Origin: Sumerlaeia bacterium
GTDB lineage: Bacteria > Sumerlaeota > Sumerlaeia > SLMS01 > JAHLLQ01
Assembly: GCA_040219255.1 (NCBI GenBank)
Contig: JAVJSW010000031.1
Location: forward strand, 1-64,000
Reading direction: 5' to 3'
DNA: 64,000 nt
Shown here piece by piece: positions 1 to 21,525 of this stretch; position 1 is the first letter of the stretch; every line of letters begins with the position of its first letter. The notes beneath the pieces were generated by a model. The model was not told the origin of the DNA, searched no databases, and saw nothing but the letters and a program-made list of their open reading frames with translations. Both the position numbers and the translations under genes were made by a program.

Positions 1-61
1 GGCTGGTAAGTAGAAAAGCACGCTCGGCGCGGCCGAGCAAGCTCTTGCCTGCGGAGGGGAA

Positions 62-115
62 AAAGTGTTACCGATGTCTCCGGTACAAAGTGTCACCCCT
101 CTGCCCGGTCGTACA
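62..115 (+). mobile_element. IS481-family right end remnant
   Basis: AAGTGTTACCGATGTCTCCGGTACA-AAGTGTCACCCCTCTGCCCGGTCGTACA: two tandem imperfect repeats ending in TACA. It reads KVLPMSPVQSVT, resembling the C-terminus/IRR of IS481 transposases as I recall them. Confidence 0.6.
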
Positions 116-141
116 CCGCACCGCCGCCCCCTGATGCCCCC

Positions 142-696
142 CTACGTAAGAAGAGGCGGGATCAGCCGCCTCAAGGCCGTGTGGACGATCTCATCAAGCT
201 CTAAGCGGCCCTTCAGCAGGTCCACCCCCTCGCAACCTTCCCGGATAAGGTCAGCGATCTGGCTTGCGTATGGCTCGCGGCAAACTTCGGGATGTTCTTC
301 TGGAAGCCAGTCCAAGCTGCTGGCGACAAACGCCTCCAGAAGTTGTTCATCCAGATCAGTCGCAACAACGCCATGCGCATCGCGCAGGAAGTAGCTTGCA
401 TAGCATCCCGAGATGCAGACCAGCGTCCTCTCTCTCACCTGCCACAACCCCACAGAAGAGTCGAAGAGCTCAAAGTTGACGGCAGGGCGATGGTCTGGGC
501 ACCTCCGCCTCCACGGCGCATCTGAAGCATCCTTATCTCCCAAGATGAGCGCTTCAGGGGTCTTGCCGTCCGCTGCGACCAGCATATCCCTCGCTCCGAA
601 GGACCTGGGAGAATCGTACATAGCCTCCAAGACTGGCGCATCTCCTTCTTCAACGATCCACCACTGCATACCTTCTTCAGCAACAAAGTCGTCCAT
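142..696 (-). CDS. hypothetical acidic protein
   Basis: 184-aa ORF with a GAGG RBS-like sequence upstream. No family recognised. Confidence 0.55.
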   Translation of the reverse strand: MDDFVAEEGMQWWIVEEGDAPVLEAMYDSPRSFGARDMLVAADGKTPEALILGDKDASDAPWRRRCPDHRPAVNFELFDSSVGLWQVRERTLVCISGCYASYFLRDAHGVVATDLDEQLLEAFVASSLDWLPEEHPEVCREPYASQIADLIREGCEGVDLLKGRLELDEIVHTALRRLIPPLLT

Positions 697-767
697 GTTC
701 GTATCCTCTAGATGAAGTTCATGCCGCTCACCATGAGCAGCAACTTCATCATACGACGCGCCGGAGG

Positions 768-923
768 ATGATGTTCGCGGGAAGGTATCTCGTGAAGGAG
801 GGCCTCGGCATCAATGCGATCGCACGAAGGCTCAACGAGGAAGGACTACCAAGCCGGAGAGGCCGCAGGTGGTATGGCACGACGGTTACGCTGGTGCTCA
901 ACAGGTTGGGTGGAGGACCGTGA
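768..923 (+). pseudogene. serine recombinase C-terminal (Recombinase-domain) remnant
   Basis: Translates KEGLGINAIARRLNEEGLPSRRGRRWYGTTVTLVLNR, nearly the same as the C-terminus of 11988..12317. Not in the ORF track. Confidence 0.8.
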
Positions 924-975
924 TTCTACTTCACCCTTGCTTGCGATGCCTCATCTTTGCAACCTTCTCTTCGCT

Positions 976-1284
976 ATGCGCCTGTTCGACCTGCTCCCAT
1001 CCCTCCTACGCCGTCTCCCCGCCCTCTTGCTGGTGGGGATGTTCGTGTTGATGGCGACTGGCGTAGTTCACGGGACATGCACCGATGGTGACGGAGAACC
1101 TGAGCAGACCGAGCATGTGGTGATCTGTAAGTGCGCCTGTCATCATCACCTTTACGTGCCGGACACTAAGGTGGCTCGCGTTTCCTTCGAGATCGCGCCT
1201 TCGCAGCTTATCGTTGAGCCCGCCTTCCGGCTCCCTGACGCCGAACCTTCCGGCATCTTCCGACCACCTAAACATCTCGTCTGA
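976..1284 (+). CDS. small exported Cys/His protein with C-terminal RPP motif (CzcI/DUF2946-like uORF)
   Basis: Signal-like N-terminus, CKCACHHH metal motif and terminal IFRPPKHLV. Lies just upstream of the czcC-like gene. Confidence 0.7.
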   Translation: MRLFDLLPSLLRRLPALLLVGMFVLMATGVVHGTCTDGDGEPEQTEHVVICKCACHHHLYVPDTKVARVSFEIAPSQLIVEPAFRLPDAEPSGIFRPPKHLV

Positions 1285-1364
1285 GTGACCTTCGCGGGAG
1301 ACGTATGTCTTCCGCCCGGCGGGCCCTTCTTGGGCCGCCGCATCACTTTTGACGAGGTACTTCT

Positions 1365-2747
1365 ATGGATACCCCTCTGCTGAGGGCGGCCCTTCTGCGG
1401 GCTGCTCCTCGCTTGTGCATGATCGCGGGGCTGGCGTTCTTCACTGGATGCGCCAGCTATTCGCGGAAACCGCTTCTGGAAGATGAGTTTCAGCAGGTGC
1501 TGGAACGGCGTTCACCAGTTGAGAACACCATTGTCCAGGGCGTCTCTGTCGATGCCTATGGACCGGATGATGGTCTCACGCTCGAAGAAGCTGAACTGCT
1601 CGCGCTCTACCTGAACCCGCGTCTGCGATCCGCTCGGCGGGACGCGCAGGTGCTTTCGGCGTCGGCCCGCTACGCCAATCTTTGGCAGGACCCAGAGATC
1701 GGAGCCGACGCCCTTCGCATCCTGGAGGATGTGGAGGAATCCTGGATCGCTGGGGCTTCTCTCTCCTTTACCATTCCCATATCCGGGCGGCTCTCAGTCG
1801 CAAAGGACCAGTCGAAAGCCGAAGCTCGCGCCGCCATCGTGGAGGCCTGGACGGAGGAGCAGCAGGTGCTGCTGGAACTTCGCCAGACGTGGGCCGAGTG
1901 GGAGGCCGCGACGGAGACGCTTTCTGTGAACCGTAGTCTCTATGGCGATCTCCAGCGTCTCGTAGAACTGACGAACCGGCGCGAGGAACTGGGGGAGTTG
2001 ATCGCTGCCGAGGCTGTGGCCTTTCGTCTGGCGGAAGCACGGCTGCGTTTGGCCATCGAACAGATCGAGGCCGAGAAAGCGCAGGCGCGGCTTCGCGTGA
2101 TCGATCTCCTCGGGCTGCTGCCGGGAGCCGACGTGGCGCTCGTTCCTGACGAGGCACATGCGCCTGCGAGCGCTGACGGGCCGGATGTCGTCTACCAGCG
2201 GTCCCCGCAAGTGCTCCTGGCCGCTGCTCGCTATCACGCAGCGGAAGAGCGGCTGCGCCTGGAAGTTCGGAAGCAGTACCCGGACATCAACCTTGGGCCG
2301 CTCTACGGGTACGAAGAGGGCATGAGTCGCCTCGGACTCGGCTTTTCCATCCCGATCCCCATCCTGAACGCAAATCGCCAAGGCATTGCCGAAGCGGATG
2401 CCGCCCGCGAAGCCGCCCGCGCCGAATGGGAGCAGGCGGTGCAGGAGGCTCTGTCCGCGAAGGCGCAGGCAGAGGCGGCGCTGGCCGCAGCTCAGCAACG
2501 CGTGGCAACGCTTGAGGAAACAATCGTTCCGCTGGCTGCCCAACAGATCGATCAGGCTCGCCAGCTTGCCGAACTCGGTGAGTTGAACACCTTGCTGATC
2601 CTGGAGGCGCTTCAGGCGGAACGCGAGGCTGAACTCGACCTGATCGACGCTCAGGCGGACGTCCAAACCGCAGCAGTGCAGCTTCGCTTCGTTGTCCCCG
2701 ATGAAGCGCCAGCCTTTGTACCTGAAGCAGACGAGGCCGCGCCATGA
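1365..2747 (+). CDS. czcC: TolC/CzcC-family outer membrane efflux protein
   Basis: Lipobox FTGC, two OEP repeats (YPDINLG...SIPIPILNANRQGI), first gene of a CBA operon. Confidence 0.88.
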   Translation: MDTPLLRAALLRAAPRLCMIAGLAFFTGCASYSRKPLLEDEFQQVLERRSPVENTIVQGVSVDAYGPDDGLTLEEAELLALYLNPRLRSARRDAQVLSASARYANLWQDPEIGADALRILEDVEESWIAGASLSFTIPISGRLSVAKDQSKAEARAAIVEAWTEEQQVLLELRQTWAEWEAATETLSVNRSLYGDLQRLVELTNRREELGELIAAEAVAFRLAEARLRLAIEQIEAEKAQARLRVIDLLGLLPGADVALVPDEAHAPASADGPDVVYQRSPQVLLAAARYHAAEERLRLEVRKQYPDINLGPLYGYEEGMSRLGLGFSIPIPILNANRQGIAEADAAREAARAEWEQAVQEALSAKAQAEAALAAAQQRVATLEETIVPLAAQQIDQARQLAELGELNTLLILEALQAEREAELDLIDAQADVQTAAVQLRFVVPDEAPAFVPEADEAAP

Positions 2748-4321
2748 GCAAGCTTTCGATTATTGACATGAACTCGACCGACTACCGGAGTAGACCGACG
2801 ATGAAGACGATGACAACGGCGTTGAGCGCCCTGCTCCTGGCGGGAGTGCTCACGGGTTTCCCATCCCGCGCTTACAGCCAGGACGATCATGCAGGCCACG
2901 ACCACGACGAACATGGGCACGAAGCAGGAGCACACGGACCAGAACCCGCAGAAGAAGCCCATGATAATCACGAAGGCCACGACGATCACGCGGGGCATGG
3001 TGAAGAAGAGGAAGGCCACACCGATGAGGTAACGCTTTCCGAAGAAGCGATCCGCCGCTTTGGGATCACTACGGCGCGGGCAGAGCGTCGCAGCCTGACC
3101 GGAACGACGACCGTGCCTGCTCGCGTCAGCTATAACACAGAAGCCATGGCGCACATCGGGACTCAGGTGCAGGGGCGCGTGCAAACGATCGCCGTGCGCC
3201 TCGGGGATGAGGTGAAGGAAGGGCAGCTTCTCCTACTGATCGACAGCCCGGAGCTCGGCGCCGCGCAGAGCGCGTACCTCCAGAAGGACGCCGCTGTGGA
3301 TGCTGCGCGAATCAATGTAGAAGCTGCTGAGGCGCTGGTCGGAGTCGCCCGCACGGCCTTCGAGCGGGCGGAGACGCTGCGCGAATCAAACGGCATCTCG
3401 ATCACGGAGTTCCTGGAGCGCCAGGGGGCTTTGCGCGAGGCCGAGGCAAACGTGCGCCGGGCCCAGGCGGCTCTCCGCGTGGCGGAGTCAGAAAGGCTCG
3501 CCGCCGAGAACCAGCTCCACATCTACGGATACGACCACGCGGGATGCGAGGCGCTGCTCGCGAGCGGAGAGATTGATACGAGCTATGAAGTCCACGCCCC
3601 GATCTCCGGGCGTGTCATCGAACGCGAGGTTACGCCTGGCGAAGTGGTGGACCCCTCCGACGAAGCACTGATGGTGCTGGCAAACATGTCGGAACTATGG
3701 GTGCTTGGCGACGTGCCGGAGCGCCATGTGGGACGGGTTGCCGTCGGAACGCCCGCTCGGGTCACGGTGGGGGCGTTGCCGGACTTGGCGTTCGAGGGCA
3801 TCGTATCCTACATCGCCCCGCAGCTCGATCCGCGTACGCGGACGGCGTCTGTTCGCATCGTGGTGCCTTCCGGCGCAGCGAACGCGGAGGAAGCGGAGCA
3901 TGCCCACGAAGAGCATGCTCATGACGAACATGACCACGCTGGCCACGATCATGGAGAACAGGAACACGAGCACGAAGCCGAGGAGAAGGCTCAAGCGCCG
4001 TCCAGCCCGCTGCTGAAGCCGGGCATGTTCGGCCAGGTGGAGCTATCCCTGACAGCGATGCCGGATCAGCACGGCCAGCCCATCGTCGCCGTTCCCGAGG
4101 ATGTCATCCAGGACGTCGAGGGCGGTCCTGCCATCTTCGTTCCCGTCGAGGGAGAACCGAACACCTTCGCGATGCGCCCCATCCGCACCGGGGCTCGCGT
4201 AGGCCGCTGGGTGCCGGTTCTCTCCGGTTTGAGCGAGGGCGAAGAGTATGTCGCCAGCCAGACCTTCATCCTGAAGGCAGAACTTGGGAAAGCGGGCGCC
4301 GAGCATGCACACTCCCACTAA
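2744..4321 (+). CDS. czcB: RND periplasmic adaptor (CzcB-like) with two His-rich tracts; start may be 2801
   Basis: MFP motifs (GRVQTIAVRLGDEVKEGQ, APISGRVIER, LKPGMF), HDHDEH tracts, C-terminal HAHSH. Confidence 0.9.
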   Translation: MSKLSIIDMNSTDYRSRPTMKTMTTALSALLLAGVLTGFPSRAYSQDDHAGHDHDEHGHEAGAHGPEPAEEAHDNHEGHDDHAGHGEEEEGHTDEVTLSEEAIRRFGITTARAERRSLTGTTTVPARVSYNTEAMAHIGTQVQGRVQTIAVRLGDEVKEGQLLLLIDSPELGAAQSAYLQKDAAVDAARINVEAAEALVGVARTAFERAETLRESNGISITEFLERQGALREAEANVRRAQAALRVAESERLAAENQLHIYGYDHAGCEALLASGEIDTSYEVHAPISGRVIEREVTPGEVVDPSDEALMVLANMSELWVLGDVPERHVGRVAVGTPARVTVGALPDLAFEGIVSYIAPQLDPRTRTASVRIVVPSGAANAEEAEHAHEEHAHDEHDHAGHDHGEQEHEHEAEEKAQAPSSPLLKPGMFGQVELSLTAMPDQHGQPIVAVPEDVIQDVEGGPAIFVPVEGEPNTFAMRPIRTGARVGRWVPVLSGLSEGEEYVASQTFILKAELGKAGAEHAHSH

Positions 4322-7300
4322 GCACCCGACCGAAGACATCTTCGAGCAGCGCGGGCCGAACCTCTTCGAGAAGATCCTGCGCTTCTCCATCCAGCATCGC
4401 TTCCTGATCCTGCTGCTGACGATCGGCGTCGGCGTACTCGGGTTCTTCTCGTTGCAGCGCCTGCCCATCGACGCGGTTCCCGACATCACGAACAAGCAGG
4501 TGCAGATCAACACGCTCGCTCCTTCGCTTGGGCCAACGGAGATCGAGACCCAGGTCACCTTCCCTGTGGAAACCGCGCTGGCGGGCATCGCGGGGCTGGA
4601 CTACACGCGTTCCCTCTCACGCAACGGTTTCTCACAGGTGACCGCTGTCTTCGATGAGGACGTGGACATCTACTGGGCTCGCCAGCAAGTCGCCGAACGT
4701 CTCGGTGCCGTTGGTGAGGAACTGCCCATGGGAGCGAACCCAGCCATGGGCCCGCTCACGACTGGCCTCGGCGAGGTGTACTCCTTCTCCATCGAGTACG
4801 AGGAGCCGGAGGACATATCACCTGTTGAGGGCGAGCCAGGCTGGCAGCCCGACGGGAGTTACCTTACTCCGGAAGGCGAAGTCCTGCGCACGCACGTGGA
4901 GAAGGCCGCCTACCTGCGCACGATCATGGAATGGGTTGTGGTCCCCCAGCATGTTCTCGTGGACGGCATCGCAAGCGTTGATGTGATCGGTGGCTATCAG
5001 AAGCAGTATCATGTGCAGCCCGACCCGGCGCAGCTCACGCGGTACAACCTGACGTTTCACGACGTGATGGAGGCGCTGGAGCGCAACAACATCAGCACCG
5101 GCGCGGGTTTCATCGAACACAAGGGCAACCAGTACATCGTCAAGTCCGACAGCCGCGTCTCCAGCATCCCGGAGATCGAAGCCATCAAGGTGGGCGATCA
5201 CACCGGCACGCCCATCTTCATCCGCGACATCGCGAACGTACTGATCGGTGAGGAACTTCGCACCGGCGCAGCCAGCGAAGACGGTCACGAAGTCGTCATT
5301 GGAACAACGATGATGATTCCCGGCGAAAACAGCCGCACGGTTGCCATCGCTGTCGGACAGAAGATGGACGACGTGCGTCGCAGCCTGCCTCCTGGCCTGC
5401 AAGCGCGTGAATTGATCGATCGATCCGAATTGGTCGACGCAACGATTCATACCGTGACGACAAACCTGACCGAAGGGGCTCTGCTGGTCATCGTGGTGCT
5501 GTTCCTGATGCTGGGAAACTTCCGTGCGGCGTTGATCACGGCCCTGGCGATTCCCCTGTCCATGCTGATGGCGGCTACTGCTATGGTCCAGTCGGGCATC
5601 AGCGGCAATCTGATGAGCCTGGGCGCGATCGACTTCGGCATTATCGTCGATGGGTCGGTCATCATCGTTGAGAACTGCATCCGCCATCTCGCCGAGGAAC
5701 AACAGCGGCTCGGACGCAAACTCACGCTGAAGGAGCGTCTCCACACGGTCTTCTACGCCGCGAAGGAAGTTCGACAGGCCACCATGTTTGGCGAGGCCAT
5801 CATCATCACGGTCTACCTTCCGATCCTGGCACTGACCGGAGTCGAAGGGAAGATGTTCCATCCGATGGCGTTGACGGTGATCTTCGCGCTGACCGCCGCC
5901 TTCGTTCTCTCGCTGACGTTCGTGCCCGCTGCGATCGCGATCTTCATGACTGGCAAAGTGAAGGAGAAGGAAAACTGGATCATTCGCATCAGCAAGGCGA
6001 TCTACGCGCCCGTGCTCGACTTTGCCTTGAGGCTTCGATGGCTCGTGATTGGCGGGGCGACGGCGGCATTCGCCGCTTCCCTGCTGCTGTTCGGACAACT
6101 CGGCACCACCTTCATCCCGACGCTTGATGAGGGGAACCTTGCCGTCCAGTCGCTCCGCATCCCCAGCACAGGCCTCGGCCAGTCGATGGAGCTTCAGTTT
6201 GCCGTCGAAGAAGCGATCGCCGGACTTCCTGAAGTGGAACTGATCTTCTCCAAAACCGGCACGACCGAAGTGGCCTTCGACCCCATGCCACCGAACATCT
6301 CCGACGGTTTTGTCATCCTGACGGACCGCGAAACATGGCCGGACCCGGACATGTCTCGCGATGAACTCTACGAGAAGATCGAAGCCGCTACGGCCCACCT
6401 GCCCGGCCAGATCTACGAGAACAGCCAGCCGATCCAGCTCCGCTTCAACGAACTGCTCTCCGGTGTTCGCGGAGACCTGGCAATCAAGGTCTACGGCGAC
6501 GACTTTGACGAGATGGTCACCACGGCCAACGAGATCGCCGCTGTCGTGCAGGAGATCCCTGGCGCGGCGGACGTGAAGGTGGAGCAGACCAGCGGCCTGC
6601 CGATCATGGACATCGACATCGACCGCGAAGCTGCCGCCCGTTTCGGGCTCTCCATGGCGGACGTCCAGGAAGTAATCGCTATCGCCGTCGGCGGGCGCGA
6701 AGCCGGGACTGTGTTCGAGGGTGATCGGCGCTTCCCGCTGATGGTGCGCCTGCCGGAAAGCATCCGTGGCGACATCACCACGCTGGAGGACTTGCCCATA
6801 CCCCTTCCAGCGGAGGACGACGACGCCATGCAGTTCGCCTCGCTCGATCCGGTCTCGATGGCCTCCGGTGCGCCACCGTTCGTGCCTCTCGGCTCCATCG
6901 CGACCATCACGGTGAGCGAAGGCCCCAACCAGGTCAGCCGTGAGAACGGCAAACGCCGCGTGACCGTCTCGGCAAACGTTCGCGGGCGTGACCTTGGCGG
7001 TTTCGTCGAAGAAGTACAGGATCGCGTACGCGAGGAAGTAGCGATTCCTGCTGGCTCGTGGGTCGACTACGGCGGAGCGTTCGAGAATCTGCTCCGCGCC
7101 CGCGAGCGTCTCGCCATCGTGGTGCCCGTCTGCTTCTTCCTTATCTTCCTGCTGCTCTTCACCACGTTCAACTCGGTGCGTTACGCGCTGCTCGTCTTCA
7201 CCGGCGTGCCTCTCGGACTGACCGGCGGGATCGTGGCCCTCTACCTTCGCGGCATCGAGTTCAGCATCTCCGCCGCCGTCGGCTTCATCGCGCTGAGCGG

Positions 7301-7652
7301 CGTCGCGGTGCTGAACGGCCTCGTCATGGTGAGCTACATCAACCACCTGCGGGCCGAAGGCATGCCTCTCGAAGAAGCGATCCGAAAGGGCGCGATGACA
7401 CGCCTCCGTCCCGTACTCATGACGGCTCTCGTTGCGAGCCTCGGCTTCGTCCCTATGGCGCTGTCGACCACGGCAGGAGCAGAAGTCCAACGCCCCCTCG
7501 CCACCGTCGTCATCGGTGGCCTGGTCTCTGCAACGTTCCTTACCCTGCTGGTGCTTCCCGCGCTCTACCGCGTTTGGCACCGCAAGAACGAGGATCTGCT
7601 GCATCGCGAAGATCCAGAGCACCTCGCGACGGCGGAAACAAAGGTGGACTGA
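4305..7652 (+). CDS. czcA: heavy-metal RND permease CzcA/CusA family
   Basis: LPIDAVPDIT, MSLGAIDFGIIVDG, RLRPVLMTALVASLGFVPMA, GAEVQRPLATVVIGG. Confidence 0.95.
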   Translation: MHTPTKHPTEDIFEQRGPNLFEKILRFSIQHRFLILLLTIGVGVLGFFSLQRLPIDAVPDITNKQVQINTLAPSLGPTEIETQVTFPVETALAGIAGLDYTRSLSRNGFSQVTAVFDEDVDIYWARQQVAERLGAVGEELPMGANPAMGPLTTGLGEVYSFSIEYEEPEDISPVEGEPGWQPDGSYLTPEGEVLRTHVEKAAYLRTIMEWVVVPQHVLVDGIASVDVIGGYQKQYHVQPDPAQLTRYNLTFHDVMEALERNNISTGAGFIEHKGNQYIVKSDSRVSSIPEIEAIKVGDHTGTPIFIRDIANVLIGEELRTGAASEDGHEVVIGTTMMIPGENSRTVAIAVGQKMDDVRRSLPPGLQARELIDRSELVDATIHTVTTNLTEGALLVIVVLFLMLGNFRAALITALAIPLSMLMAATAMVQSGISGNLMSLGAIDFGIIVDGSVIIVENCIRHLAEEQQRLGRKLTLKERLHTVFYAAKEVRQATMFGEAIIITVYLPILALTGVEGKMFHPMALTVIFALTAAFVLSLTFVPAAIAIFMTGKVKEKENWIIRISKAIYAPVLDFALRLRWLVIGGATAAFAASLLLFGQLGTTFIPTLDEGNLAVQSLRIPSTGLGQSMELQFAVEEAIAGLPEVELIFSKTGTTEVAFDPMPPNISDGFVILTDRETWPDPDMSRDELYEKIEAATAHLPGQIYENSQPIQLRFNELLSGVRGDLAIKVYGDDFDEMVTTANEIAAVVQEIPGAADVKVEQTSGLPIMDIDIDREAAARFGLSMADVQEVIAIAVGGREAGTVFEGDRRFPLMVRLPESIRGDITTLEDLPIPLPAEDDDAMQFASLDPVSMASGAPPFVPLGSIATITVSEGPNQVSRENGKRRVTVSANVRGRDLGGFVEEVQDRVREEVAIPAGSWVDYGGAFENLLRARERLAIVVPVCFFLIFLLLFTTFNSVRYALLVFTGVPLGLTGGIVALYLRGIEFSISAAVGFIALSGVAVLNGLVMVSYINHLRAEGMPLEEAIRKGAMTRLRPVLMTALVASLGFVPMALSTTAGAEVQRPLATVVIGGLVSATFLTLLVLPALYRVWHRKNEDLLHREDPEHLATAETKVD

Positions 7653-8458
7653 TGAAGGCTAAGATGGGGAAGACTGCACTTATATCCGGAGCCTCTCGCG
7701 GCATGGGAGAGGAGTTTGCCCGCCAGCTTGCTCAGCAAGGTTGGCGGGTGGTCCTCGCGGCCCGTAGTGAGCAGCGTCTCAGCGAGGTCGTTTGCTCACT
7801 GCCGGAGAGGGTTGGCCTTCCTCTTCCTCATCTTGTTCTACCTGCTGATCTCACCCTCGCCAGTGAGCGCTCGCTTCTCCAGGAGCGACTTCAGGAGAAC
7901 GGTATCAGGATCGACCTTCTGATCAACAACGCCGGGAGCGGGGACCTCGGTCTCTTCGTCGATCAGCCTGCCGAGAAGCTACAGCAGACGGTTCAGCTCA
8001 ACATCGAAGCAGCAACAGATCTGACTCGGGCGCTCCTTCCTTCCATGATCGAGCGCGGCAAGGGTCGCATCCTCATCACCGCCGGGACGGGAGCCTGTAT
8101 CCCTGTGCCCGGTTTCGTGGTCTACGCCGCCGCCGAAAGCTACTTGTGGAGCTTCGGCCTCGCTCTACGAGAAGAGGTCTCGTCGATGGGCGTGCGGGTC
8201 TCCGTGCTCTCTCCCGGCATAACGAAGAGCAGCTTCTTCACGGAAGATGAGCTTCATCGTCTGCCTTGGATCGTACGCCAGACGATGATGGAACCCAAAG
8301 AAGTGGTCACCGCCGCGATCCAGGGACTACGCCGAAACCAGGCGGAGATAGTCCCCGGCCTCCTCAACAAGCTCAACGTCTGCACCGGGCGTCACCTGCC
8401 GATCAGCCTTAGAAGCAAGATCGCCGGATGGATGCTCGGCCACCAACCGCGAAAGTGA
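7652..8458 (+). CDS. short-chain dehydrogenase/reductase (degenerate YxxxK)
   Basis: SGASRGMG and LINNAG present, but the catalytic motif reads YAAAE. ATG overlaps the czcA stop (TGATG). Confidence 0.8.
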   Translation: MKAKMGKTALISGASRGMGEEFARQLAQQGWRVVLAARSEQRLSEVVCSLPERVGLPLPHLVLPADLTLASERSLLQERLQENGIRIDLLINNAGSGDLGLFVDQPAEKLQQTVQLNIEAATDLTRALLPSMIERGKGRILITAGTGACIPVPGFVVYAAAESYLWSFGLALREEVSSMGVRVSVLSPGITKSSFFTEDELHRLPWIVRQTMMEPKEVVTAAIQGLRRNQAEIVPGLLNKLNVCTGRHLPISLRSKIAGWMLGHQPRK

Positions 8459-8467
8459 AGGAACAAC

Positions 8468-9388: not shown

Positions 9389-9462
9389 GGTTCGTTTGTC
9401 TCATGTTGGGGAGATGCTAAACTCCCCGTGCTATGTGCGCCCTGCTCAGTAAGGACAGGAAG

Positions 9463-10100: not shown

Positions 10101-10102
10101 TT

Positions 10103-11887: not shown

Positions 11888-11988
11888 TGTCACCGATCAA
11901 AATACCGTGACCCCCTGGTGGTCATAAGTTTGACCCCCCTCAGTGTTCAAAAGCTTGACCCGTCTGTGATCAAAAGTGTGACCCCCCT
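11888..11988 (+). mobile_element. IS21-family terminal region (orphan end)
   Basis: Starts TGTCA, with four TGACCC-core repeats at 11908, 11931, 11956 and 11979 (23-25 bp period). Confidence 0.65.
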
Positions 11989-12317: not shown

Positions 12318-12361
12318 TATTGAGCGCGACACCTTCTGGTCGGAACTGGCCGCAGCAGCCA

Positions 12362-13576: not shown

Positions 13577-13848
13577 CAGAGGTACTTGCTGATCTCGCGG
13601 ATCTCCTCAATGACCTTCTGGGCCTTGCGGAGATCACCGACAGCTTCGGGGTCCATGCAGTGCTCGATATGATCGCGCACATAAAGGTTCTTCGCGTTAC
13701 CGACGGCCTTGTGAACGGCGTGAAGCTGTTGAGAGGTGTCGAGGCAAGGCTTTCCTTCTTCGATCATCGCGATGACCTTCTCCAGATGCCCGGCGGCGCG
13801 GCGAAGGCGCTTCAGCACGTCGTCGTGGTGTTTGTGCGGCCCACTCAT
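13576..13848 (-). CDS. CsoR/RcnR-family metal-sensing repressor (NreA/InrS-like)
   Basis: HKHH..LKRLRRAAGHLEKVIAMIEEGKPC..QQLHAV..DHIEHC, with an AGGAG RBS. Confidence 0.9.
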   Translation of the reverse strand: MSGPHKHHDDVLKRLRRAAGHLEKVIAMIEEGKPCLDTSQQLHAVHKAVGNAKNLYVRDHIEHCMDPEAVGDLRKAQKVIEEIREISKYL

Positions 13849-13870
13849 GCGAACTCTCCTTGAGCCTCTG

Positions 13871-13889
13871 TATCCTGAGGGGGGGGATA
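13871..13889. promoter_or_regulatory. putative RcnR/InrS/NcrB-type operator
   Basis: TATCC-TGA-GGGGGG-GGATA: inverted ends around a G-tract, between divergent genes. Confidence 0.7.
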
Positions 13890-13976
13890 GGTTCAGCAGA
13901 TGGCAAGCGGTGCAGGGCGTCAACGCCTTCCTGCCCCCAAGCGCCATCAGAATCCTTTCCGGAGTTCCCCTTTCCG

Positions 13977-14636
13977 ATGAAACTTCTTCCGTATCTTCTC
14001 TCCACGGCACTCGTGGGCACGATGCTCGTTGGCTGCGGCCAGCAGGAGCAGGAGGCTTCCTCCGCCACCTCCGCGTCCGAACCGGCAGCGGCACCCGACA
14101 CACACACGCACTCCGACGGCAGCACCCATGCAACACACGACGAAACCGCTGCTTCTCAAGAGCAAGCTCACTCGCACGGCGGCGAGATCGTCTCCCTTGG
14201 CGAGAAGCAGGTTCTTGGCTTTACCGTCAAGGCGGAGCAAGAAGGTGCCGTAACTGCCGGACAGGAAGCGGTCTTCCTGATCGAGACGACTCCTGCCGCC
14301 GAAGCGGTTCGGCTCTGGGTTGGTGACGAGCAGGCGACGGGCTCCGTGCGGTCGAAGGCCGAGGGCGGTCCCACGAGCTTCCACTCACACGCTATGGTGC
14401 CTTCCCCGCTGACCGCAGAAGCGCAGCTCTGGGTCGAGGTGCAGAACGCCGCCGGTGAACGTGGCTCCGTCGCGTTCGATCTTGGTGGCGCGGCGGCGAG
14501 TGCTAGCCACAGCCATGGTGACGCCGAACATAGCCACGAAGGTGAAGCGGCCCACAGCCATGACGAAGTTCCCGCCCCGGCTAACGATGACCACGGTCAC
14601 AGCCACGACGACGGAGATCATGGTCACTCCCACTAA
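13977..14636 (+). CDS. His-rich lipoprotein
   Basis: Lipobox LVGC, repeated HSH motifs, C-terminal HGHSHDDGDHGHSH. Confidence 0.85.
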   Translation: MKLLPYLLSTALVGTMLVGCGQQEQEASSATSASEPAAAPDTHTHSDGSTHATHDETAASQEQAHSHGGEIVSLGEKQVLGFTVKAEQEGAVTAGQEAVFLIETTPAAEAVRLWVGDEQATGSVRSKAEGGPTSFHSHAMVPSPLTAEAQLWVEVQNAAGERGSVAFDLGGAAASASHSHGDAEHSHEGEAAHSHDEVPAPANDDHGHSHDDGDHGHSH

Positions 14637-16026
14637 ACAGCTCTTCACACTGCTCTATCCATCCCTGGCAGTCCTTCTTCTCGGTCTCTCCGGATGCGTC
14701 CGGTACACCCCGACTCCGGTTTCCGAGGAAGAGGTGCTCTCGCGCTTTGCACAGCGCTCGCTGGCGACGCCGGAGCTGACCCGATTCGCGGAGCAGATGG
14801 CCGAGGCAGAGCACCATAGCGGCGGTCACTACGATCCTGTGGACGGGCTCGCCCTCGCAGAAGCAGAGATCGCGATGCTCTTTTTCAGCCCCGAACTTGC
14901 GGCAGAGCGGGCGCGTGTCGGGATCGCTGATGCCACGGCGTCGACCGCAGGACGCCTTGATGATCCCGTCCTTTCCCTCGAAGCAACGAGGCTTCTGGAG
15001 AACGCCTCGTCTTCAGCGAATCCTTGGGACTCACGAGTAGGTCTCAGTTTCGTCATACCCGTCTCCGGCAAGCTCGGCGTCGAGAAGGACCTCGCGGAGG
15101 CCGAGGCGCAGGAAGCGCGGGCGCAGTACCTCGTAGCTCAGCGCGAGCAGCTTCAGGAGCTGCGCCATACCTGGCTGGAGTACTCGGAGGCGGCTGCTGC
15201 CGCCACGCTGTTGGAGTCTTACCTTGAAGATCTTCGGGAGATCGTTGATCTGTCTCAACGCCTAGCCGAACAAAGCGTTATCCCGCGCACAGAGGCCAGA
15301 CTTCTGCGGATCGAGCATCTCGAACGCGAAGCGGAGCACCGCCACCTTCTGGCCCGTCAGGATCTGCTTCGACGTGATGCGCTCCATCTCATCGGCGTCC
15401 CTGCCACGCCCGCCGTGGAACTCTTGCCGACCCTGGAAGCACCCGATAGCATTGAGGCAGACGAGCGCCTCCTGATCGAGCGACACCCCGCGCTGGCGGC
15501 GCTCAGGCTTCGCCTGGCCTCTACCGAACAGGCTTTTCGGCTCGAAGTGCGCCGCCAATATCCCGACCTCTCGCTCGGCCCTATCGGTGCGGAAGAGGAC
15601 GATCTCTGGCGGCTGGGGTTCGGTCTCTCGCTGCCGCTGCCCGTCTGGAATAAGAATGCCCAGGGCCTCGCCGAAGCGGAAGCCGCCCGTGATGCCGCAC
15701 GTGCCGAGTATGAAGCGGCCCTAGTTGGCGTACTTGCAGAGGTCGACCAGCTCCGGACTCGGGTCACTGCCAGCGAGGAGCGCCTCCGCTTCCTGCGTGA
15801 AGAGCTGGCGCCGGTCGTGACCGAGCAGATCGAGGAAACCCGACGCCTTGCAGAGCTGGGGAGCCTCGACATGCTCCTCCTGCGCGAGGCGCTCTCCATG
15901 AACTATGAGACAACCATCCGTCTGCTGAGCGCCCAGCGCGAAAGCGCGGAGCTGAGGTGGAGTCTGGCCAGTTATCCCTCGCCCCAACCCATCGCCCCCA
16001 TATCCGATCACGAGTTGAGCGAATGA
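14620..16026 (+). CDS. TolC-family outer membrane efflux protein
   Basis: Lipobox LSGC and QYPDLSLGP..LPLPVWNKNAQG. Paralog of 1365..2747. Confidence 0.88.
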   Translation: MVTPTKQLFTLLYPSLAVLLLGLSGCVRYTPTPVSEEEVLSRFAQRSLATPELTRFAEQMAEAEHHSGGHYDPVDGLALAEAEIAMLFFSPELAAERARVGIADATASTAGRLDDPVLSLEATRLLENASSSANPWDSRVGLSFVIPVSGKLGVEKDLAEAEAQEARAQYLVAQREQLQELRHTWLEYSEAAAAATLLESYLEDLREIVDLSQRLAEQSVIPRTEARLLRIEHLEREAEHRHLLARQDLLRRDALHLIGVPATPAVELLPTLEAPDSIEADERLLIERHPALAALRLRLASTEQAFRLEVRRQYPDLSLGPIGAEEDDLWRLGFGLSLPLPVWNKNAQGLAEAEAARDAARAEYEAALVGVLAEVDQLRTRVTASEERLRFLREELAPVVTEQIEETRRLAELGSLDMLLLREALSMNYETTIRLLSAQRESAELRWSLASYPSPQPIAPISDHELSE

Positions 16027-17411
16027 AGTTTACTCCGGCCTTCACGGCCCTCCTCTGTACCGCCTTGCTCTTAGCAGCGTGCGACCACTCACACGATCAC
16101 GCCGCGCCGATGGCGGAAGAGGAAGCTGCCCCTCCGACCAACCGCGTTGATGTACCACTCGCGGTACGCCAGAACCTTGGGATCACCTTCGCAACGGTTG
16201 AGCGACGTGCCGTTGCCGATACGGTCCGGTATCCCGGCGTCTTCGAGCTGAAGTCGACCGCTCGCAATCAGTACGTCGCCCCAGCGGCGGGGCGGGTCGA
16301 GGTGATGGTTGAGGACTACCAGCCTGTCGAGCCTGGCACAGTGCTCATCCGTGTTCACTCGCCCGCATGGTCGCGAGTGAAGGCGTCGATGAGCGAAGCT
16401 CTGCTTTCCGCCGAAGCCATGCGGGGAAGGCTTGCCGCGCATGAACGGTATCACGCCGCGCTCCAGGAGAAACTGGCTTTCTGGCGGGAGCGTCTCGCTC
16501 AACTCGAACAGCTTAGCCAGGCTGGAGGCGGGCAGCAGGCGCAACTTGCCGATGCCCGACAGAACATCGCCGCCACGGAGGCCGAGATCGCCGAGGCGGA
16601 GGAGAACCATCAGGAACTCCTCATGGAGGCTGTCCCGTTTCTCGGCGCTGAAGGGTCGGGCGAGGGCAACCCCTCCTTCGACCTCGCCCTGAACGAAGCG
16701 AGCGTCCTGCTCGGCATGAGCGAAGAAGAACTGCTGGAAGACGTGAACGGCGAGCCCCGATGGCGCACGATCGATGCGCTGGAGGTGGTTGCGACCAGCG
16801 GTGGCCGCGTCGGCCCGATCCCGGTAACCACGGGATCGCTGGTAGACAACGGATCCCTCGTCATCACCGTCACCGACCCATCGCAGCTTCGCTTTCGGGC
16901 CAAGGCTCTCCAGTCCGACCTCGCGAAACTCCAGGAAGGATCTGTCGTTCGCGTCGCTCCGCTCGACCGGAGTGCAGGAGAGACCCTCGCGGGAACGCTT
17001 GCCTTTGGCCTCGAAGCCAACTCAGCTCAGCGAACCGTCGACCTCATCATCAACCTGAACGAAACCGCCTCCGCCACCTGGGCACGTCCTGGTGTGGCGG
17101 GTGTGGCTGAAGTCGTCATCGCAGGCGGCGGTGCCATGGAACTCGCCGTTCCCGAACGCGCCGTCATCACCGATGGACTTCAGCGCGTGCTCTTCCGCCG
17201 AGCCCCTGACAACCCGAACCAGGTCATTCGGCTGGAGGCCGACGCAGGGGTGAGCGACGGTCAGTGGATCGAGATCCTCTCCGGCCTGGCCGAAGGCGAC
17301 GAGGTCGTCCTCGGCGGCATCTACGAACTCATGCTCGGTAGCTCTACCGATGGAACCCGCCAAGAAGGTGGTCACTTCCACGGTGACGGCACCTTCCACG
17401 AGGCGCACTGA
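16023..17411 (+). CDS. RND periplasmic adaptor subunit
   Basis: Lipobox LAAC, coiled-coil hairpin, WIEILSGLAEGDEVV, C-terminal GHFHGDGTFH. Confidence 0.85.
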   Translation: MKFTPAFTALLCTALLLAACDHSHDHAAPMAEEEAAPPTNRVDVPLAVRQNLGITFATVERRAVADTVRYPGVFELKSTARNQYVAPAAGRVEVMVEDYQPVEPGTVLIRVHSPAWSRVKASMSEALLSAEAMRGRLAAHERYHAALQEKLAFWRERLAQLEQLSQAGGGQQAQLADARQNIAATEAEIAEAEENHQELLMEAVPFLGAEGSGEGNPSFDLALNEASVLLGMSEEELLEDVNGEPRWRTIDALEVVATSGGRVGPIPVTTGSLVDNGSLVITVTDPSQLRFRAKALQSDLAKLQEGSVVRVAPLDRSAGETLAGTLAFGLEANSAQRTVDLIINLNETASATWARPGVAGVAEVVIAGGGAMELAVPERAVITDGLQRVLFRRAPDNPNQVIRLEADAGVSDGQWIEILSGLAEGDEVVLGGIYELMLGSSTDGTRQEGGHFHGDGTFHEAH

Positions 17412-20400
17412 TGCTAGCTCGCCTGATCTCGTTTTCGCTCAAGAACTCGCCACTGGTTCTGATCATCGGTCTGCTCATCATGTTCGCCGGGGCATACGTG
17501 ATCCCGCGCATGAATCTCGACGTCTTCCCGGAGCTGAACGCCCCCCGCGTTGTGATCCTGACGGAGGCGGGCGGCCTCTCTGCTGACGAGGTTGAGCAGT
17601 ACGTCACCTTTCCCATTGAAAGCGCCATGAACGGCATCGTCGGCGTGCGGGCGGTGCGCAGCACGAGTGCGCTATCGCTCTCTGTCGTCTACGTCGAGTT
17701 CGACTGGGACATGGAGATCTACCGGGCGCGTCAGCTCGTGAGCGAACGCCTCTCCGCCGTACGAGAAGAACTGCCCGAGAACACACATGCGGAGATCGGC
17801 CCCGTCAGCTCCATCACCGGCGAGATCATGCTGCTCTCGCTTTCGTCGCCGGAAGAAACGGTGTCGCCGCGAGAGCTGCGTTCCTTCGCAGAGTACGACC
17901 TCCGCAACCGCCTCCTGGCCGTACCTGGTATCACCCAGGTCGTCGCCATCGGCGGCGAGTTGCCAGAGTACCAGGTGAACCTCAGCCAGGAGAAATTACT
18001 CCTCCACGGCCTCACCGTTCACGACGTGGTGGAGGCGACACGCAACGCCCATAGCATCGCGTCCGCTGGATACCTGACCGATGTGGAAGGTCTTGAGCTA
18101 CCTCTTCGCCAGCAAGCCCGAGCCCAAAGCATCGACGACATCGCCGCGACGACAGTGCGTTTCGCGGACGGCTCGGCCCTCACGCTCGGCGACGTGGCAG
18201 ACGTACGCTTGGGCGCGGCGATTCCTCGTGGCAGCGGCTCCGAGTCCGGCAACCCGGCGGTGGTGCTCGCCCTCACGAAAGCGCCCGGCATCAACACGAT
18301 CCGCCTTACCGAAGCCGTGGACGCCGCGCTCGACGAGATCCAGTTCGCCATGCCGGAAGGGATGGTGCTCAACCGCCACATCTTCCGCCAGGCCGAGTTC
18401 ATCGAGCGCTCCATCGGCAACCTTCTACACAAGCTCCGCGACGCCACGATCCTGGTGGCGATCATCTTGGTGCTCTTCCTGCTCAACGCCCGGACGACGA
18501 TCATCACTCTGGTGGCGATCCCTCTCTCCATGGGCGTGACGATCCTGATCTTCTACGCGCTCGGCATGACGATCAACGTGATGACACTCGGCGGTCTCGC
18601 CATCGCCATCGGCGAGTTGGTCGACGACGCCATCATCGACGTGGAAAACGTGTACCGGCGTTTGCGCGAGAACGCCAGCCTGCCCGCCGAACAGCAGCGC
18701 CCCCGCGTGAAAGTCATCTACGACGCCAGTAACGAGATCCGTTCGTCCATCGTCTTCGCAACCATCATCATCTGCATCGTTTTCCTCCCGCTGCTCTTCC
18801 TCCAGGGCATCGAAGGTCGCTTCTTCCGTCCCATGGGTATGGCCTACATCCTGTCGATCCTGGCTTCGCTGGTGGTGGCGCTCACCATTACGCCCGCCAT
18901 GTGCAAACACCTGCTGAAGCCAAAGGAAGGCAAGGAACACGGCGATGGACCACTGGTGCGGTTGCTGAAGCGTGCCTACGAACCGAGCTTGCTCCTCGCG
19001 CTGCGCCTGCGGAAGACGGTGCTGGGCCTGGCTCTGGTCGCGACCGTCGCGGCTCTTGCCTTGGCGTCGACCTTCGGCACGAGCTTCCTGCCCTCCTTCA
19101 ACGAGGGCACGTTCACCATCTCCTTCATGGCTCCTCCCGGAACGTCGCTTCCTGCGAGCGATCGCCTCGGGCCGGGTGTCGAACGCCGCATCGCCGAGAT
19201 CGAAGGAGTCCGCGCTGTTGTCCGCCGTACAGGTCGCGCTGAACGGGACGAACACGCCATGCCGCCCAGCAACAGCGAGATCGATGTCTCCCTCGAACCC
19301 GGAGCCGACAAGGAAGCCGTGCGGCGAGAGATCGATACGGTACTCGCCACAGTCCCTGGTGTTGTAGCGACCGTGGGACAGCCCATCGGCCACCGCCTCA
19401 GTCACATCCTCTCAGGTACGCCTGCCGACGTTGCCATCAGCGTCTATGGCGAAGACCTGAACGTGCTGCGGCAGATCGCTCGCGAAGTCGAAGGCGAGTT
19501 GAACGCTCTCCCCGGAGCCCGCGACGTAAACGCCAACCGCGAACTGATGATCCAGTCCATCCCGATCATCTATCGCCATCAGGACCTCGCCCGTTACGGC
19601 CTCACGCCCGCCGAGGCCGCCGAGCAGGTGCAAGTCGCCTTCAGCGGCGAGCACGTCGCCACCATCAACGAAGGTATCCGGCGCTACGATCTCGTGGTGC
19701 GGCTCGATGCTTCCGAGCGCGACCGCATCGACCAGGTGAAGGACTTCATCCTGCGCGGAGCCGACGGCGCGATGTTGCGTCTGAGTGACGTCGCCGACGT
19801 CGGGCGCGAGCGCGTCTCCAACCTGATCACCCGCGAGAACGCCCGGCGCAAAGCAGTAATCTCGCTCAACGTCGCGGAGGGCTCAAACCTCGGCGATCTC
19901 GTCTCAGAGGTCCGCGAACGCGTCGATCCCATCGTCGCCCGCCACGGCTACTCCGTGCAGTACGGCGGCCAGTTCGAGGCGCAGCAGTCCGCCGCCCGCA
20001 CCATCGCCGTCATGGGTTTCGTCACGCTCGTGCTCGTACTGCTTCTTCTCCACGCTGCGCTCAAGTCTTTCAAGGCAGCGATCCTGGTGCTCGTCAACCT
20101 GCCACTCGCCCTCATCGGAGGCATCGCCGCCGTCTACATCTCCGAGACGCCGAACTTCCTCGCGAACACCGGGGCCCTGCTCGGCCTCGGCGGCACGTAC
20201 ATCGCGCCGGTCCTCAGCATCGCCAGCCTCGTCGGCTTCATCACCCTGTTCGGCATCGCCGTCCGAAACGGCATCCTCCTCGTGAACCACTACGCCTGGC
20301 TTCAGGAAAACGAAGGCTTCGGCCTTGGCGACGCCGTCGTACGCGGCAGCATGGAGCGCCTCGTTCCCATCCTGATGACCGCTCTCACAGCGGCACTCGC

Positions 20401-20554
20401 GCTCCTCCCCGTCGTCTGGGCCGCAGGCCAACCCGGCAGCGAGATCCTCGCCCCCCTCGCCGTCGTCGTCCTCGGAGGCCTCATCACCTCCACCTTCCTC
20501 AACGCCATCGTGGTGCCGGTGGGGTACGCGATGATGTTTGGTAGAAGGCGTTGA
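17411..20554 (+). CDS. heavy-metal RND permease (CusA/CzcA family)
   Basis: LDVFPELNAP, MTLGGLAIAIGELVDDAIIDVEN, ERLVPILMTAL. Confidence 0.95.
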   Translation: MLARLISFSLKNSPLVLIIGLLIMFAGAYVIPRMNLDVFPELNAPRVVILTEAGGLSADEVEQYVTFPIESAMNGIVGVRAVRSTSALSLSVVYVEFDWDMEIYRARQLVSERLSAVREELPENTHAEIGPVSSITGEIMLLSLSSPEETVSPRELRSFAEYDLRNRLLAVPGITQVVAIGGELPEYQVNLSQEKLLLHGLTVHDVVEATRNAHSIASAGYLTDVEGLELPLRQQARAQSIDDIAATTVRFADGSALTLGDVADVRLGAAIPRGSGSESGNPAVVLALTKAPGINTIRLTEAVDAALDEIQFAMPEGMVLNRHIFRQAEFIERSIGNLLHKLRDATILVAIILVLFLLNARTTIITLVAIPLSMGVTILIFYALGMTINVMTLGGLAIAIGELVDDAIIDVENVYRRLRENASLPAEQQRPRVKVIYDASNEIRSSIVFATIIICIVFLPLLFLQGIEGRFFRPMGMAYILSILASLVVALTITPAMCKHLLKPKEGKEHGDGPLVRLLKRAYEPSLLLALRLRKTVLGLALVATVAALALASTFGTSFLPSFNEGTFTISFMAPPGTSLPASDRLGPGVERRIAEIEGVRAVVRRTGRAERDEHAMPPSNSEIDVSLEPGADKEAVRREIDTVLATVPGVVATVGQPIGHRLSHILSGTPADVAISVYGEDLNVLRQIAREVEGELNALPGARDVNANRELMIQSIPIIYRHQDLARYGLTPAEAAEQVQVAFSGEHVATINEGIRRYDLVVRLDASERDRIDQVKDFILRGADGAMLRLSDVADVGRERVSNLITRENARRKAVISLNVAEGSNLGDLVSEVRERVDPIVARHGYSVQYGGQFEAQQSAARTIAVMGFVTLVLVLLLLHAALKSFKAAILVLVNLPLALIGGIAAVYISETPNFLANTGALLGLGGTYIAPVLSIASLVGFITLFGIAVRNGILLVNHYAWLQENEGFGLGDAVVRGSMERLVPILMTALTAALALLPVVWAAGQPGSEILAPLAVVVLGGLITSTFLNAIVVPVGYAMMFGRRR

Positions 20555-20612
20555 TCGACGGAGGTGCTGAGCACCGCCTTCTACTCGTGCCTCGCTCTGT
20601 AGGCAGCAGAAG

Positions 20613-21038
20613 TCACTCCTTCAACTTCGCGGCCAGCTCGCGCAGCTTCAACTTCTGGTTCGGGATGGCCTGACGGCGCTCGATCGGAACTCGCTTTATG
20701 GCAGAGGTAGGTGAAGGTGGTGCTACCTCACCAACCGGCAAGTCTGCGTCTTCGGCCCCCTCGGCATCCTTCATGGCGATAGGTTGCTCGATGATGAGGA
20801 GCCGGGGCTGGTCCCTGAGGTGATCGCCTCTATCTGCTGTCATCTTCTTGCCGTACTTCTTCGTCCGCCGCTCTTTCTGCATCGCGTTGATCGCGAAGAT
20901 GAGGTCGGCACCCCAGTAGCCTGCACCAGGGAGGGAGACGCGTCCATGGGCTCGGAGGGTGTCCAGCTTCACGCATCCCGAGAGCATGTTCATGACTTCT
21001 TCCGTCGTGTAGATGGCGTTCGGGTCGATCACGTGCAT
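20613..21038 (-). CDS. putative excisionase/winged-HTH protein, copy 2
   Basis: Close paralog of 9463..9891 in the same position relative to att. Confidence 0.55.
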   Translation of the reverse strand: MHVIDPNAIYTTEEVMNMLSGCVKLDTLRAHGRVSLPGAGYWGADLIFAINAMQKERRTKKYGKKMTADRGDHLRDQPRLLIIEQPIAMKDAEGAEDADLPVGEVAPPSPTSAIKRVPIERRQAIPNQKLKLRELAAKLKE

Positions 21039-21218
21039 GCCATGACATGGCCTTCAGGGAGATGTGGACCTGTTCCAGTCCGACTTGCGGGAAAGATGGT
21101 CGGGGCTTGGTCCGACTCGGCTGTTGTTGTCAGTAGGATACGTCGTCTCGCAAGTCGAGTGCTTTTGGTTCTTGACTGCTGAGGATGCTTGAGTTAGACG
21201 TTATTAGTAAACGTTCTG

Positions 21219-21246
21219 CAAGTCCTCTCCTGGGCACCATTTACAG
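21219..21246 (+). repeat. att site: tRNA 3'-end duplication, copy 2
   Basis: CAAGTCCTCTCCTGGGCACCATTTACAG, identical to 10073-10100. Confidence 0.88.
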
Positions 21247-21247
21247 C

Positions 21248-21525
21248 TTAGTTATCAGCAACAATCTCAATGATCTGTGCTTGTGAACCCGGAGCCGCGA
21301 ACTCCGGGTTTCTGCCATTTTGCTGCCATTTCGTTCCTGCAAGAGCTGATTCGATCTCCGAGTTCAGGAGAGGAATAATGCCATTCTGGAACAGGTCGAA
21401 GAGTTCCACCGCATCGGTGCTCTGGTAGTGCTTTCCGGTTACGGACGGATCCGCATGGCCGACGTACTGCTCGACCAGCCTCTCCGACCATGCGGGGTTC
21501 CGGCGGGCGGTGTTCAGGAGTGCCC
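21248..21525 (-). pseudogene. C-terminal remnant of another integrase (third element)
   Basis: Minus frame reads LLNTARRNPAWSERLVEQYVGHADPSVTGKHYQ...PEFAAPGSQAQIIEIVADN*, homologous to the integrase C-terminus (WNVYLVDRYVGHAPRSIMERHY...PEVASPGSEAQIFEIGALA*). Confidence 0.85.

Follow-up and report, generated by a model that had tools for sequence, protein, structure and literature searches.

Tandem accretion of integrative elements is said to have been described for ICESt1/ICESt3, together with cis-mobilizable elements, by Pavlovic in 2004 and Bellanger in 2011. Heavy-metal efflux systems of the CzcCBA/CusCBA type, whose pumps belong to the resistance-nodulation-division (RND) family, are reportedly known from genomic islands. 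Arrays of SXT/R391 elements have been documented in which older members decay and hybrids arise by recombination between neighbours (PMC5812530), and the Islander survey counted 125 tandems of at least two members and 4 of at least three among 3,919 islands (PMC4383910). Here, we analysed a stretch of 64,000 nucleotides from a Sumerlaeia bacterium (the window; positions 1-64000, at the start of an 84.9-kb contig, C31), whose left part carries stacked tyrosine-integrase islands next to copies of a tRNA-Leu 3' end. The array consists of one complete unit (B), one partial unit (A) and one scar (C), with two metal-efflux cassettes. It probably arose by tandem accretion, with related islands inserting one after another at a single tRNA-Leu 3' end.

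The source assembly, G000, is metagenome-derived (5.35 Mb in 83 contigs, 92% complete, 3.3% contamination). Other G numbers denote genomes of relatives, C contigs, L fetched loci, P proteins and X sequencing runs. Parts were called by Pfam, NCBIfam, PHROG, ARAGORN and Rfam, the last of which gave no match at E ≤ 1 over window positions 1-25000. Contigs of run X1 possibly come from the source sample itself and are not independent; the comparison used contigs only and covered window positions 1-20000. Runs X2-X4 had small shares (0.05-0.15) and were left out of habitat inference. Scanning for relatives by alignment gave 9 of 487 metagenome loci and 11 of 34 in genomes, and a single-protein scan of metagenome contigs returned 39 pattern matches, of which none was confirmed. 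Candidatus Sumerlaeota is the source label on close homologues of the window integrase. A literature search combining the phylum name with 'integrase' returned no paper on its islands, and PMC8092238 has no occurrence of 'genomic island', 'tRNA', 'czc' or 'mobile'. Mobile elements of this phylum thus seem undescribed in the literature searched.

Junctions, integrases and target tRNA

The features that define the units and their attachment (att) sites are the following, with excisionase-like genes written as Xis-like or xis and the confidence of structural models given as predicted local distance difference test (pLDDT) scores.

116-10072, no strand: visible part of unit A, at least 9,957 bp, bounded on its right side by an xis copy, arm and att1
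9463-9891, minus strand: Xis-like gene copy 1, 142 aa, candidate recombination directionality factor
9892 to about 10072, no strand: non-coding arm by att1, 91% identical to 21039-21218
10070-10100, plus strand: att1, a tRNA-Leu 3' end with an intact 7-nt T-loop, plus 7 element-derived bases
10103-11443, minus strand: intact tyrosine integrase of unit B, PF00589 at E 2.5e-7
10138-10168, plus strand: terminator-like hairpin with a 12-bp stem and a T tail, antisense in the last codons of integrase B
20613-21038, minus strand: Xis-like gene copy 2, 141 aa, model pLDDT 74-85 over residues 1-60
21039-21218, no strand: non-coding arm by att2, twin of the att1 arm
21219-21246, plus strand: att2, a tRNA-Leu 3' end
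21248-21529, minus strand: unit C, a 282-bp integrase 3' remnant cut just past the catalytic box II arginine

An identical 28-bp repeat starts at 10073 and at 21219, as the original prediction had it, with a spacing of 11,146 bp. These are the sole two copies in the assembly, even with three mismatches allowed in the first 22 bases. The proposal that the repeat holds a tRNA 3' end stands for its first 21 bases; the last 7 are element sequence. Similarity extends well beyond this core (9410-10182 versus 20560-21328, 86%), and the repeated block comprises the minus-strand 142/141-aa gene (84% identical between copies), an arm of about 180 bp, the core and about 80 bp beyond it (65%). We could therefore confirm that the same Xis-like gene and arm precede each repeat and that a convergent integrase follows each, intact at 10103 and as a remnant at 21248 that is 38% identical to integrase B over 95 aa. 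The exact stretches common to both arms measure 61, 42 and 37 bp. Contigs of this assembly share about 141 bp where their ends overlap, far more than the longest of these stretches, which speaks against a repeat collapsed during assembly.

Att1 matches the tRNA-Leu of relatives from one base before the T-loop through CCA. Among copies that consist of an att site only (att1 and the fragments of G001 and G009), identity to the tRNA starts at the T-loop or one base before it, which points to a crossover in the tRNA T-loop, with an overlap that we take to be exactly the 7-nt T-loop. On the att2 side, the T-loop heptamer has at its second position (21218) a base found neither in att1 nor in the tRNA. 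In lambda-type systems, such a mismatch hinders recombination. A displaced tRNA 3' fragment in the same orientation is present as att1 and as att2, and unit C has none.

The 21-bp tRNA part of the repeat was found in 16 of 41 genomes, and its reversed control in none. Its 18 places outside G000 comprise 11 full tRNA-Leu genes, ten with anticodon AAG and one with GAG, and 7 fragments. Ten of the 11 full genes start with GCCCAGG, the start predicted for the target, and the other with GCCCGGG. In five of them, this integrase or a 3' scar of it comes next after the tRNA: it is intact in G001, partial in G016, reduced to tails in G006 and G021, and to an 81-bp scar in G018. The scars after tRNA-Leu(AAG) in G006 and G021 show 79-81% DNA identity to remnant C. 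Three further members of the integrase family are carried at tRNA-Leu(CAG), and distant members at tRNA-Pro, -Arg, -Gln, -Met and -Trp, always convergent where a tRNA was called. A complete island with both ends was recovered in one relative (L078, about 9.9 kb). Judging from these matches, the target is most likely a tRNA-Leu in its AAG form, and the intact gene would lie to the left of the window.

Integrase B is about 446 aa long from its likely ATG, in a frame open to 11524. The catalytic residues R275, K303, R377, H402 and Y412 are invariant in 10 sequences, and the first His is replaced by Asn, or by Lys or Ser in its kin, giving a [K/N/S]DLR motif across the clade. Its sequence has no match in the PDB or in phage or plasmid collections; in structure, its model is close to lambda Int and Tn1549 Int (E 1.4e-7 to 2e-7). 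The modelled N-terminus is beta-rich, with six strands and a helix over residues 37-107 (pLDDT about 75-86), where an arm-binding domain has three strands and a helix, and is a candidate for such a domain. The clade has 145 cluster representatives at E ≤ 1e-30. In a tree of 27 rows, Leu-associated integrases fall in one 12-row group (support 99/98) that includes 7 rows without a known tRNA, and a separate 7-row group is mostly Pro-associated. A profile of the family found four matches in G000, namely integrase B, remnant C and distant integrases on C14 and C51. The one on C14 (52654-54229) is of the same clade and convergent to tRNA-Arg(ACG), and a 20-bp copy of that tRNA's 3' end lies at C24:3125; a second island of the same kind is likely split over C14 and C24. 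A tRNA-Pro-like fragment comes next after the C51 integrase. In G002 (contig C5, L047:2851-4184), a lone 92%-identical integrase sits between ordinary genes at a degenerate tRNA-Leu core, with no tRNA and no xis, possibly as a secondary-site insertion or a minimal unit.

Remnant C is 78% identical to P0011 and 62% to the integrase at tRNA-Leu(CAG) in G008, which places it in another integrase subgroup than integrase B. Unit C is without cargo, xis, third core or right boundary, and chromosomal-looking genes (2'-5' RNA ligase family, BrxA/B, UbiE) start at most 35 bp past it. The original prediction was right that the most decayed copy is outermost, unit C being an integrase tail. It had posited three related elements of about 11 kb that stack efflux cassettes; what we found are one complete element, one partial element and a 282-bp tail of a different subgroup, and two cassettes. 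A single fixed cut point for the integrase remnants was considered and rejected, as scars measure about 55-80 bp in G002 and G018, about 280 bp in G006 and 225 aa in G016; two of the scars end at contig edges.

The hairpin in the end of integrase B folds at z -3.38. Across six related sequences, compensatory changes on both sides occur in 4 of 12 pairs, all in the outer stem, and the 7 inner pairs are invariant but overlap codons, which makes them uninformative alone. The hairpin also exists in remnant C, with no terminator call and a weaker fold (z -1.87). Uninterrupted tRNA-Leu genes have hairpins of their own at a similar distance. We read the hairpin as a putative terminator that the island supplies to the tRNA, a role that may explain why integrase tails survive as scars.

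The two Xis-like genes differ at 17 synonymous positions (synonymous divergence, dS, 0.19), and over the N-terminal 62 codons the comparison of the copies indicates purifying selection (nonsynonymous divergence, dN, 0.036; dS 0.18). The protein belongs to no Pfam, NCBIfam or PHROG family, and its Atlas hits all score below 0.9, a Cox-family row at 0.84 being a lead only. The best fold matches of residues 1-60 were 6hn7 (Z 5.5), TorI (Z 4.9) and the GIsul2 excisionase (Z 4.8), all three of the AlpA/TorI/Xis type (root-mean-square deviation 2.6-3.8 over 49-59 residues). Among homologues found by tblastn in the fetched loci, 13 of 13 lie directly upstream of a same-clade integrase or overlap it, and four more are placed alike; a match in G043 that overlaps its integrase in another frame was left out of this count. 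A third xis of the same subtype (P0004, 76%) occurs on other contigs. In the window, the gene is on the integrase strand at the far end of the unit, with 9 kb of cargo between. Its modelled fold and the placement of its homologues suggest that it may act as Xis. Upstream of xis, several relatives have a primase, a helicase, ParA/ParB or an intact resolvase, none of which is present in unit B; AEP primase or AAA_25 genes take this place in L075, L081 and L078. Type I-C cas genes (Csd1, Cas7, Cas1) lie within 10 kb upstream of an xis-int pair in L069:48-4076, and L075 has two xis-int pairs facing each other, between which no tRNA was called. In the arm, visual inspection suggested a promoter-like pair of hexamers, which was dropped after a promoter scan gave 0 sites.

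Cargo of units A and B

The remaining features of the two units, including insertion sequence (IS) remnants, are listed below.

1-115, plus strand: IS481-family right end of a multicopy 1,568-bp element, 100% identical to G000:C5:6340-6454 and to the starts of C37 and C38
142-696, minus strand: open reading frame (ORF) of 184 aa without Pfam or NCBIfam match, between two resolvase 3' ends
768-923, plus strand: serine resolvase 3' remnant (Recombinase domain) of unit A, PF07508 at E 2.3e-7
1365-7652, plus strand: CzcCBA/CusCBA-type efflux operon of unit A (PF02321, PF16576, PF00873), with outer-membrane factor 1365-2747, adaptor 2744-4321 and RND pump 4284-7652
7670-8458, plus strand: short-chain dehydrogenase (SDR), PF00106
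8468-9388, plus strand: cation diffusion facilitator (CDF) cation exporter, PF01545, TIGR01297
11609-11889, no strand: IS66 tnpA fragment, a nested IS remnant upstream of integrase B
11888-11995, no strand: IS21-type end, a nested IS remnant upstream of integrase B
11997-12317, plus strand: serine resolvase 3' remnant of unit B, PF07508 at E 5.5e-8, its catalytic domain lost at the IS junction
12362-13576, minus strand: major facilitator superfamily (MFS) transporter, PF07690
13576-13848, minus strand: CsoR/RcnR-family metal-sensing repressor, PF02583
13980-20554, plus strand: efflux operon of unit B (PF02321, PF16576, PF00873), with a His-rich gene 13980-14636, outer-membrane factor 14455-16026, adaptor 15957-17411 and RND pump 17411-20554

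Unit B, which spans 11,146 bp from att1 to att2, is the only complete unit. Both pumps score above the TIGR00914 cut-off of 701.45 bits (1446.8 bits for pump A and 711.5 for pump B), and they are 32% identical to each other. At E ≤ 1e-150, pump B is matched in none of 10 family genomes but in 13 other genomes of 74, a distribution consistent with acquired cargo. The term 'resistance array' in the original prediction goes further than the family annotation on which it rests; metal resistance is a predicted function of these pumps. The 218-aa His-rich protein at the start of the unit B operon has a signal-like N-terminus and no family match, and is possibly a periplasmic metal binder. Elsewhere, G018 carries a CzcCBA operon (L063:39-5525) about 2.4 kb from tRNA-Leu(AAG), on its upstream (5') side, and the pump of this operon shares 68% identity with pump A; RND efflux genes occur near other same-clade integrases in L075:688-12888 and L060:8120-10687.

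Pfam and NCBIfam recognised no conjugation or phage genes inside the units, as had been claimed. Specifically, relaxase, coupling protein and type IV secretion genes are absent among the ORFs of unit B, where oriT was not searched, and so are primase or other replication genes and phage structural genes. The resolvase remnant at 768 is 82% identical over 39 aa to the one at 11997, and an intact Resolvase+Recombinase gene is found in the G001 element (L049:2591-3436). In an IS-free X1 contig of 869 bp, a homologue of 12111-12226 adjoins window position 115; that segment is part of the resolvase remnant of unit B, so unit A probably had a similar left side.

The IS481 transposase scores 223.9 bits against NF033577, whose cut-off is 224, and the IS481 end caused the contig break. 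The IS66 and IS21 remnants are 92-98% identical to multicopy elements at contig ends, and were assigned by NF047593 and NF033819 on the C12 copy and by an IS21 transposase fragment on C51. Another IS21-type end, identical to 11888-11995, adjoins regularly spaced repeats resembling a CRISPR array at the start of contig C78 (L115:1-1100). Repeats with a 12-bp period at window positions 62528-62659 and 63923-64000 are probably Pro/Thr linkers on the minus strand.

Origin of the array

Tandem accretion would have proceeded as follows. An island integrates by a crossover in the T-loop; its own 3' end makes the tRNA whole again, and the terminator-like hairpin concealed in the last part of its integrase gene would come with it. 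The restored tRNA then serves a later island, which pushes the earlier one outward and would leave at each junction the xis and arm of the newer island, the tRNA 3' end and the integrase tail of the older one. The units would have arrived in the order C, B and A, and C would later have lost everything from a point within its integrase to one past its right boundary. Unit B appears worn, with IS66/IS21 remnants upstream of its integrase, a truncated resolvase and the T-loop mismatch at att2. No relaxase, primase or phage gene was recognised in it, so that its movement would depend on a helper or on an integrase nearby, and its mobility is presumably reduced.

Several results weigh against this reading. 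The tRNA-Leu with the 3' end of the repeat is absent from G000 by ARAGORN, by motif search and among 47 Rfam hits; of the claim that one tRNA-Leu left of the window was hit repeatedly, the tRNA-Leu target stands, but the assembly contains neither that gene nor the adjoining contig. The integrase and left boundary of unit A are likewise missing from the assembly, as searched with the integrase profile. No partner contig was found for the IS481 end, the available flanks being GGGG, TTGG, AATC and CCTC where CCGC is needed. The search for an empty site in relatives came back without one: in 10 genomes of the family, which all belong to other genera, the genes that follow 21564 in the window are not beside tRNA-Leu, and hence no empty site is demonstrated. 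No circle junction appeared in the X1 contigs over the range compared. An X1 contig of 997 bp is an A/B hybrid arm and could mean another arrangement in that sample. It follows copy 1 from 9349 and then carries 12 differing letters and three gaps (at 9912, 10015 and 10070), where 15 mismatches and 3 gaps separate the two copies themselves over 9873-10100 and 62 mismatches do so further left; the protein it encodes, P0003, agrees with copy 2 at position 7 and with copy 1 from there on. The hybrid reflects either loss of unit B by homologous recombination, of the kind documented for SXT/R391 tandems (PMC5812530), or a graph-simplification artefact at depth 4.5. As for Xis, Foldseek gave no match to the model at E ≤ 0.001 (E 0.56), the fold scores tie with unrelated rows and lie below the Z of 8 required for confidence, and the gene order differs from that of all 13 related xis-int pairs, which are adjacent.

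Among the other explanations, the one that holds up best, though it is rather unlikely, is that the array has moved away from its tRNA, the IS481 end at 1-115 marking a deletion or rearrangement that left the stack an orphan comparable to the lone G002 integrase. The lack of any contig with the matching 4-bp flank would fit this, as would the existence of that 92%-identical integrase at a degenerate core without tRNA or xis. On the other hand, CTC is a common codon here (about 30,500 occurrences in long frames) and yet the whole assembly lacks the tRNA, as would be expected if a repeat-rich locus had not been assembled, and the IS-free X1 contig continues element-like sequence leftward. Moreover, such a displacement would alter the present location of the array and not its origin.

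A slightly smaller chance attaches to a history of two integrations only, followed by rearrangement within a single composite island: a duplication of the xis-arm-att block, with homologous recombination or the serine resolvase adding or exchanging cargo, rather than unit A integrating on its own. This would account for the unseen integrase of unit A and for the resolvase 3' remnants that head both cargo blocks, and the hybrid arm of X1 switches in the region where the two arms share exact stretches. However, the 17 synonymous differences between the xis copies and the low identity of the pumps imply that any duplication is old, the third xis (P0004) fits a circulating family of elements, and att1 shows the succession of arm, core and integrase tail expected of tandem integration.

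It is very improbable that the array is an assembly chimera of two strains' islands, as a contaminated metagenome assembly and a hybrid arm among low-depth X1 contigs might suggest, given that the shared exact stretches fall far below the contig overlap length and that X1 contigs cover both cargo blocks with 0 differences and at similar depth (3.9-4.8).

Tandem accretion at one tRNA-Leu may also be seen within a wider picture, which taken as a whole we hold to be doubtful. These would be members of a distinct and so far undescribed clade of small islands, with a cargo slot between xis and int that opens with a resolvase gene. Stacked members would share near-identical xis-arm blocks and trade or drop efflux cassettes by recombination, the X1 hybrid being such a product. 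The islands would further specialise on a rare tRNA-Leu with A at position 34 (A34), and their integrase tails would be kept as terminators for the tRNA.

Comparison with known systems

The tRNA-Leu genes found in G000 have anticodons TAA, CAA and CAG only, and in its codon use CTC far exceeds CTT (rough count 30,509 versus 8,449). Across the phylum, a pattern running from the D-arm to the anticodon matches in 57 of 75 genomes, 30 of which have the AAG form and 27 the GAG form only, the two being nearly exclusive; G008 is counted as AAG, its GAG-type match looking like chance. All eight family members with a match have AAG, and ARAGORN bore out this anticodon at 10 of 10 loci checked (examples are L043:1501-1588 and L085-L094). 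By analogy with these relatives, G000 presumably has a tRNA-Leu(AAG) gene as well. Two sets of irregular calls were noted in G000, an atypical 77-nt 'Leu(CAG)' beside a tRNA-Stop(TTA) call (C68:282572-283118) and two overlapping odd tRNA-like calls (C16:52229-52414). Bacterial tRNA-Leu(AAG) has been reported almost exclusively from Bacilli (PMC13249217), and in Lactobacillales it is edited to IAG by TadA (PMC13249217, PMC11472039). As in Lactobacillales, an A34 leucine tRNA here replaces the GAG form, and G000 has a TadA-like gene (C12:70491-70931; 134.7 bits, below the cut-off of 150). Unlike Lactobacillales, this is an unrelated, GC-rich phylum in which IAG editing is putative. The presence of an A34 tRNA-Leu across a large share of this phylum extends a trait reported mainly from Bacilli (PMC13249217).

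The mechanism proposed for the array is a textbook one, an ordinary way of piling up acquired genes, and the integrase group is little studied. The locus offers a testable set of integrase, att sites and Xis candidate from an uncultured phylum, and shows how such bacteria gather metal pumps, as predicted by family. Like Islander islands, the array shows a tyrosine integrase by a tRNA 3' end, a displaced 3' fragment at the far end, a probable crossover in the T-stem region and, in units A and B, one fragment per member (PMC4383910). The Islander rule asks for an integrase and a fragment in each member; here only unit B has both, unit A having the fragment and unit C an integrase tail, and the tRNA is unassembled (PMC4383910). 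The stacking of related elements at one site, the decay of older members and a possible hybrid between neighbours recall ICESt1/ICESt3 and SXT/R391, as far as the latter are described in PMC5812530, but no conjugation module was recognised here, the units are of about 11 kb, and the phylum and integrase group are unrelated. In common with known heavy-metal efflux islands, the cargo comprises an outer-membrane factor, an adaptor, a TIGR00914 pump and a CDF exporter or CsoR/RcnR repressor, whereas the presence of two divergent pumps side by side sets this array apart. Finally, the integrase has the R-K-x-R-H-Y residues and, as modelled, the three-part organisation and beta-rich N-terminus of the arm-binding-domain tyrosine recombinases, with a putative small winged-helix partner (PMC8138268). 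It is not assigned to any of the six subgroups of that study, and it differs from those recombinases in the clade-wide replacement of the first His and in a xis that is detached from int (PMC8138268).

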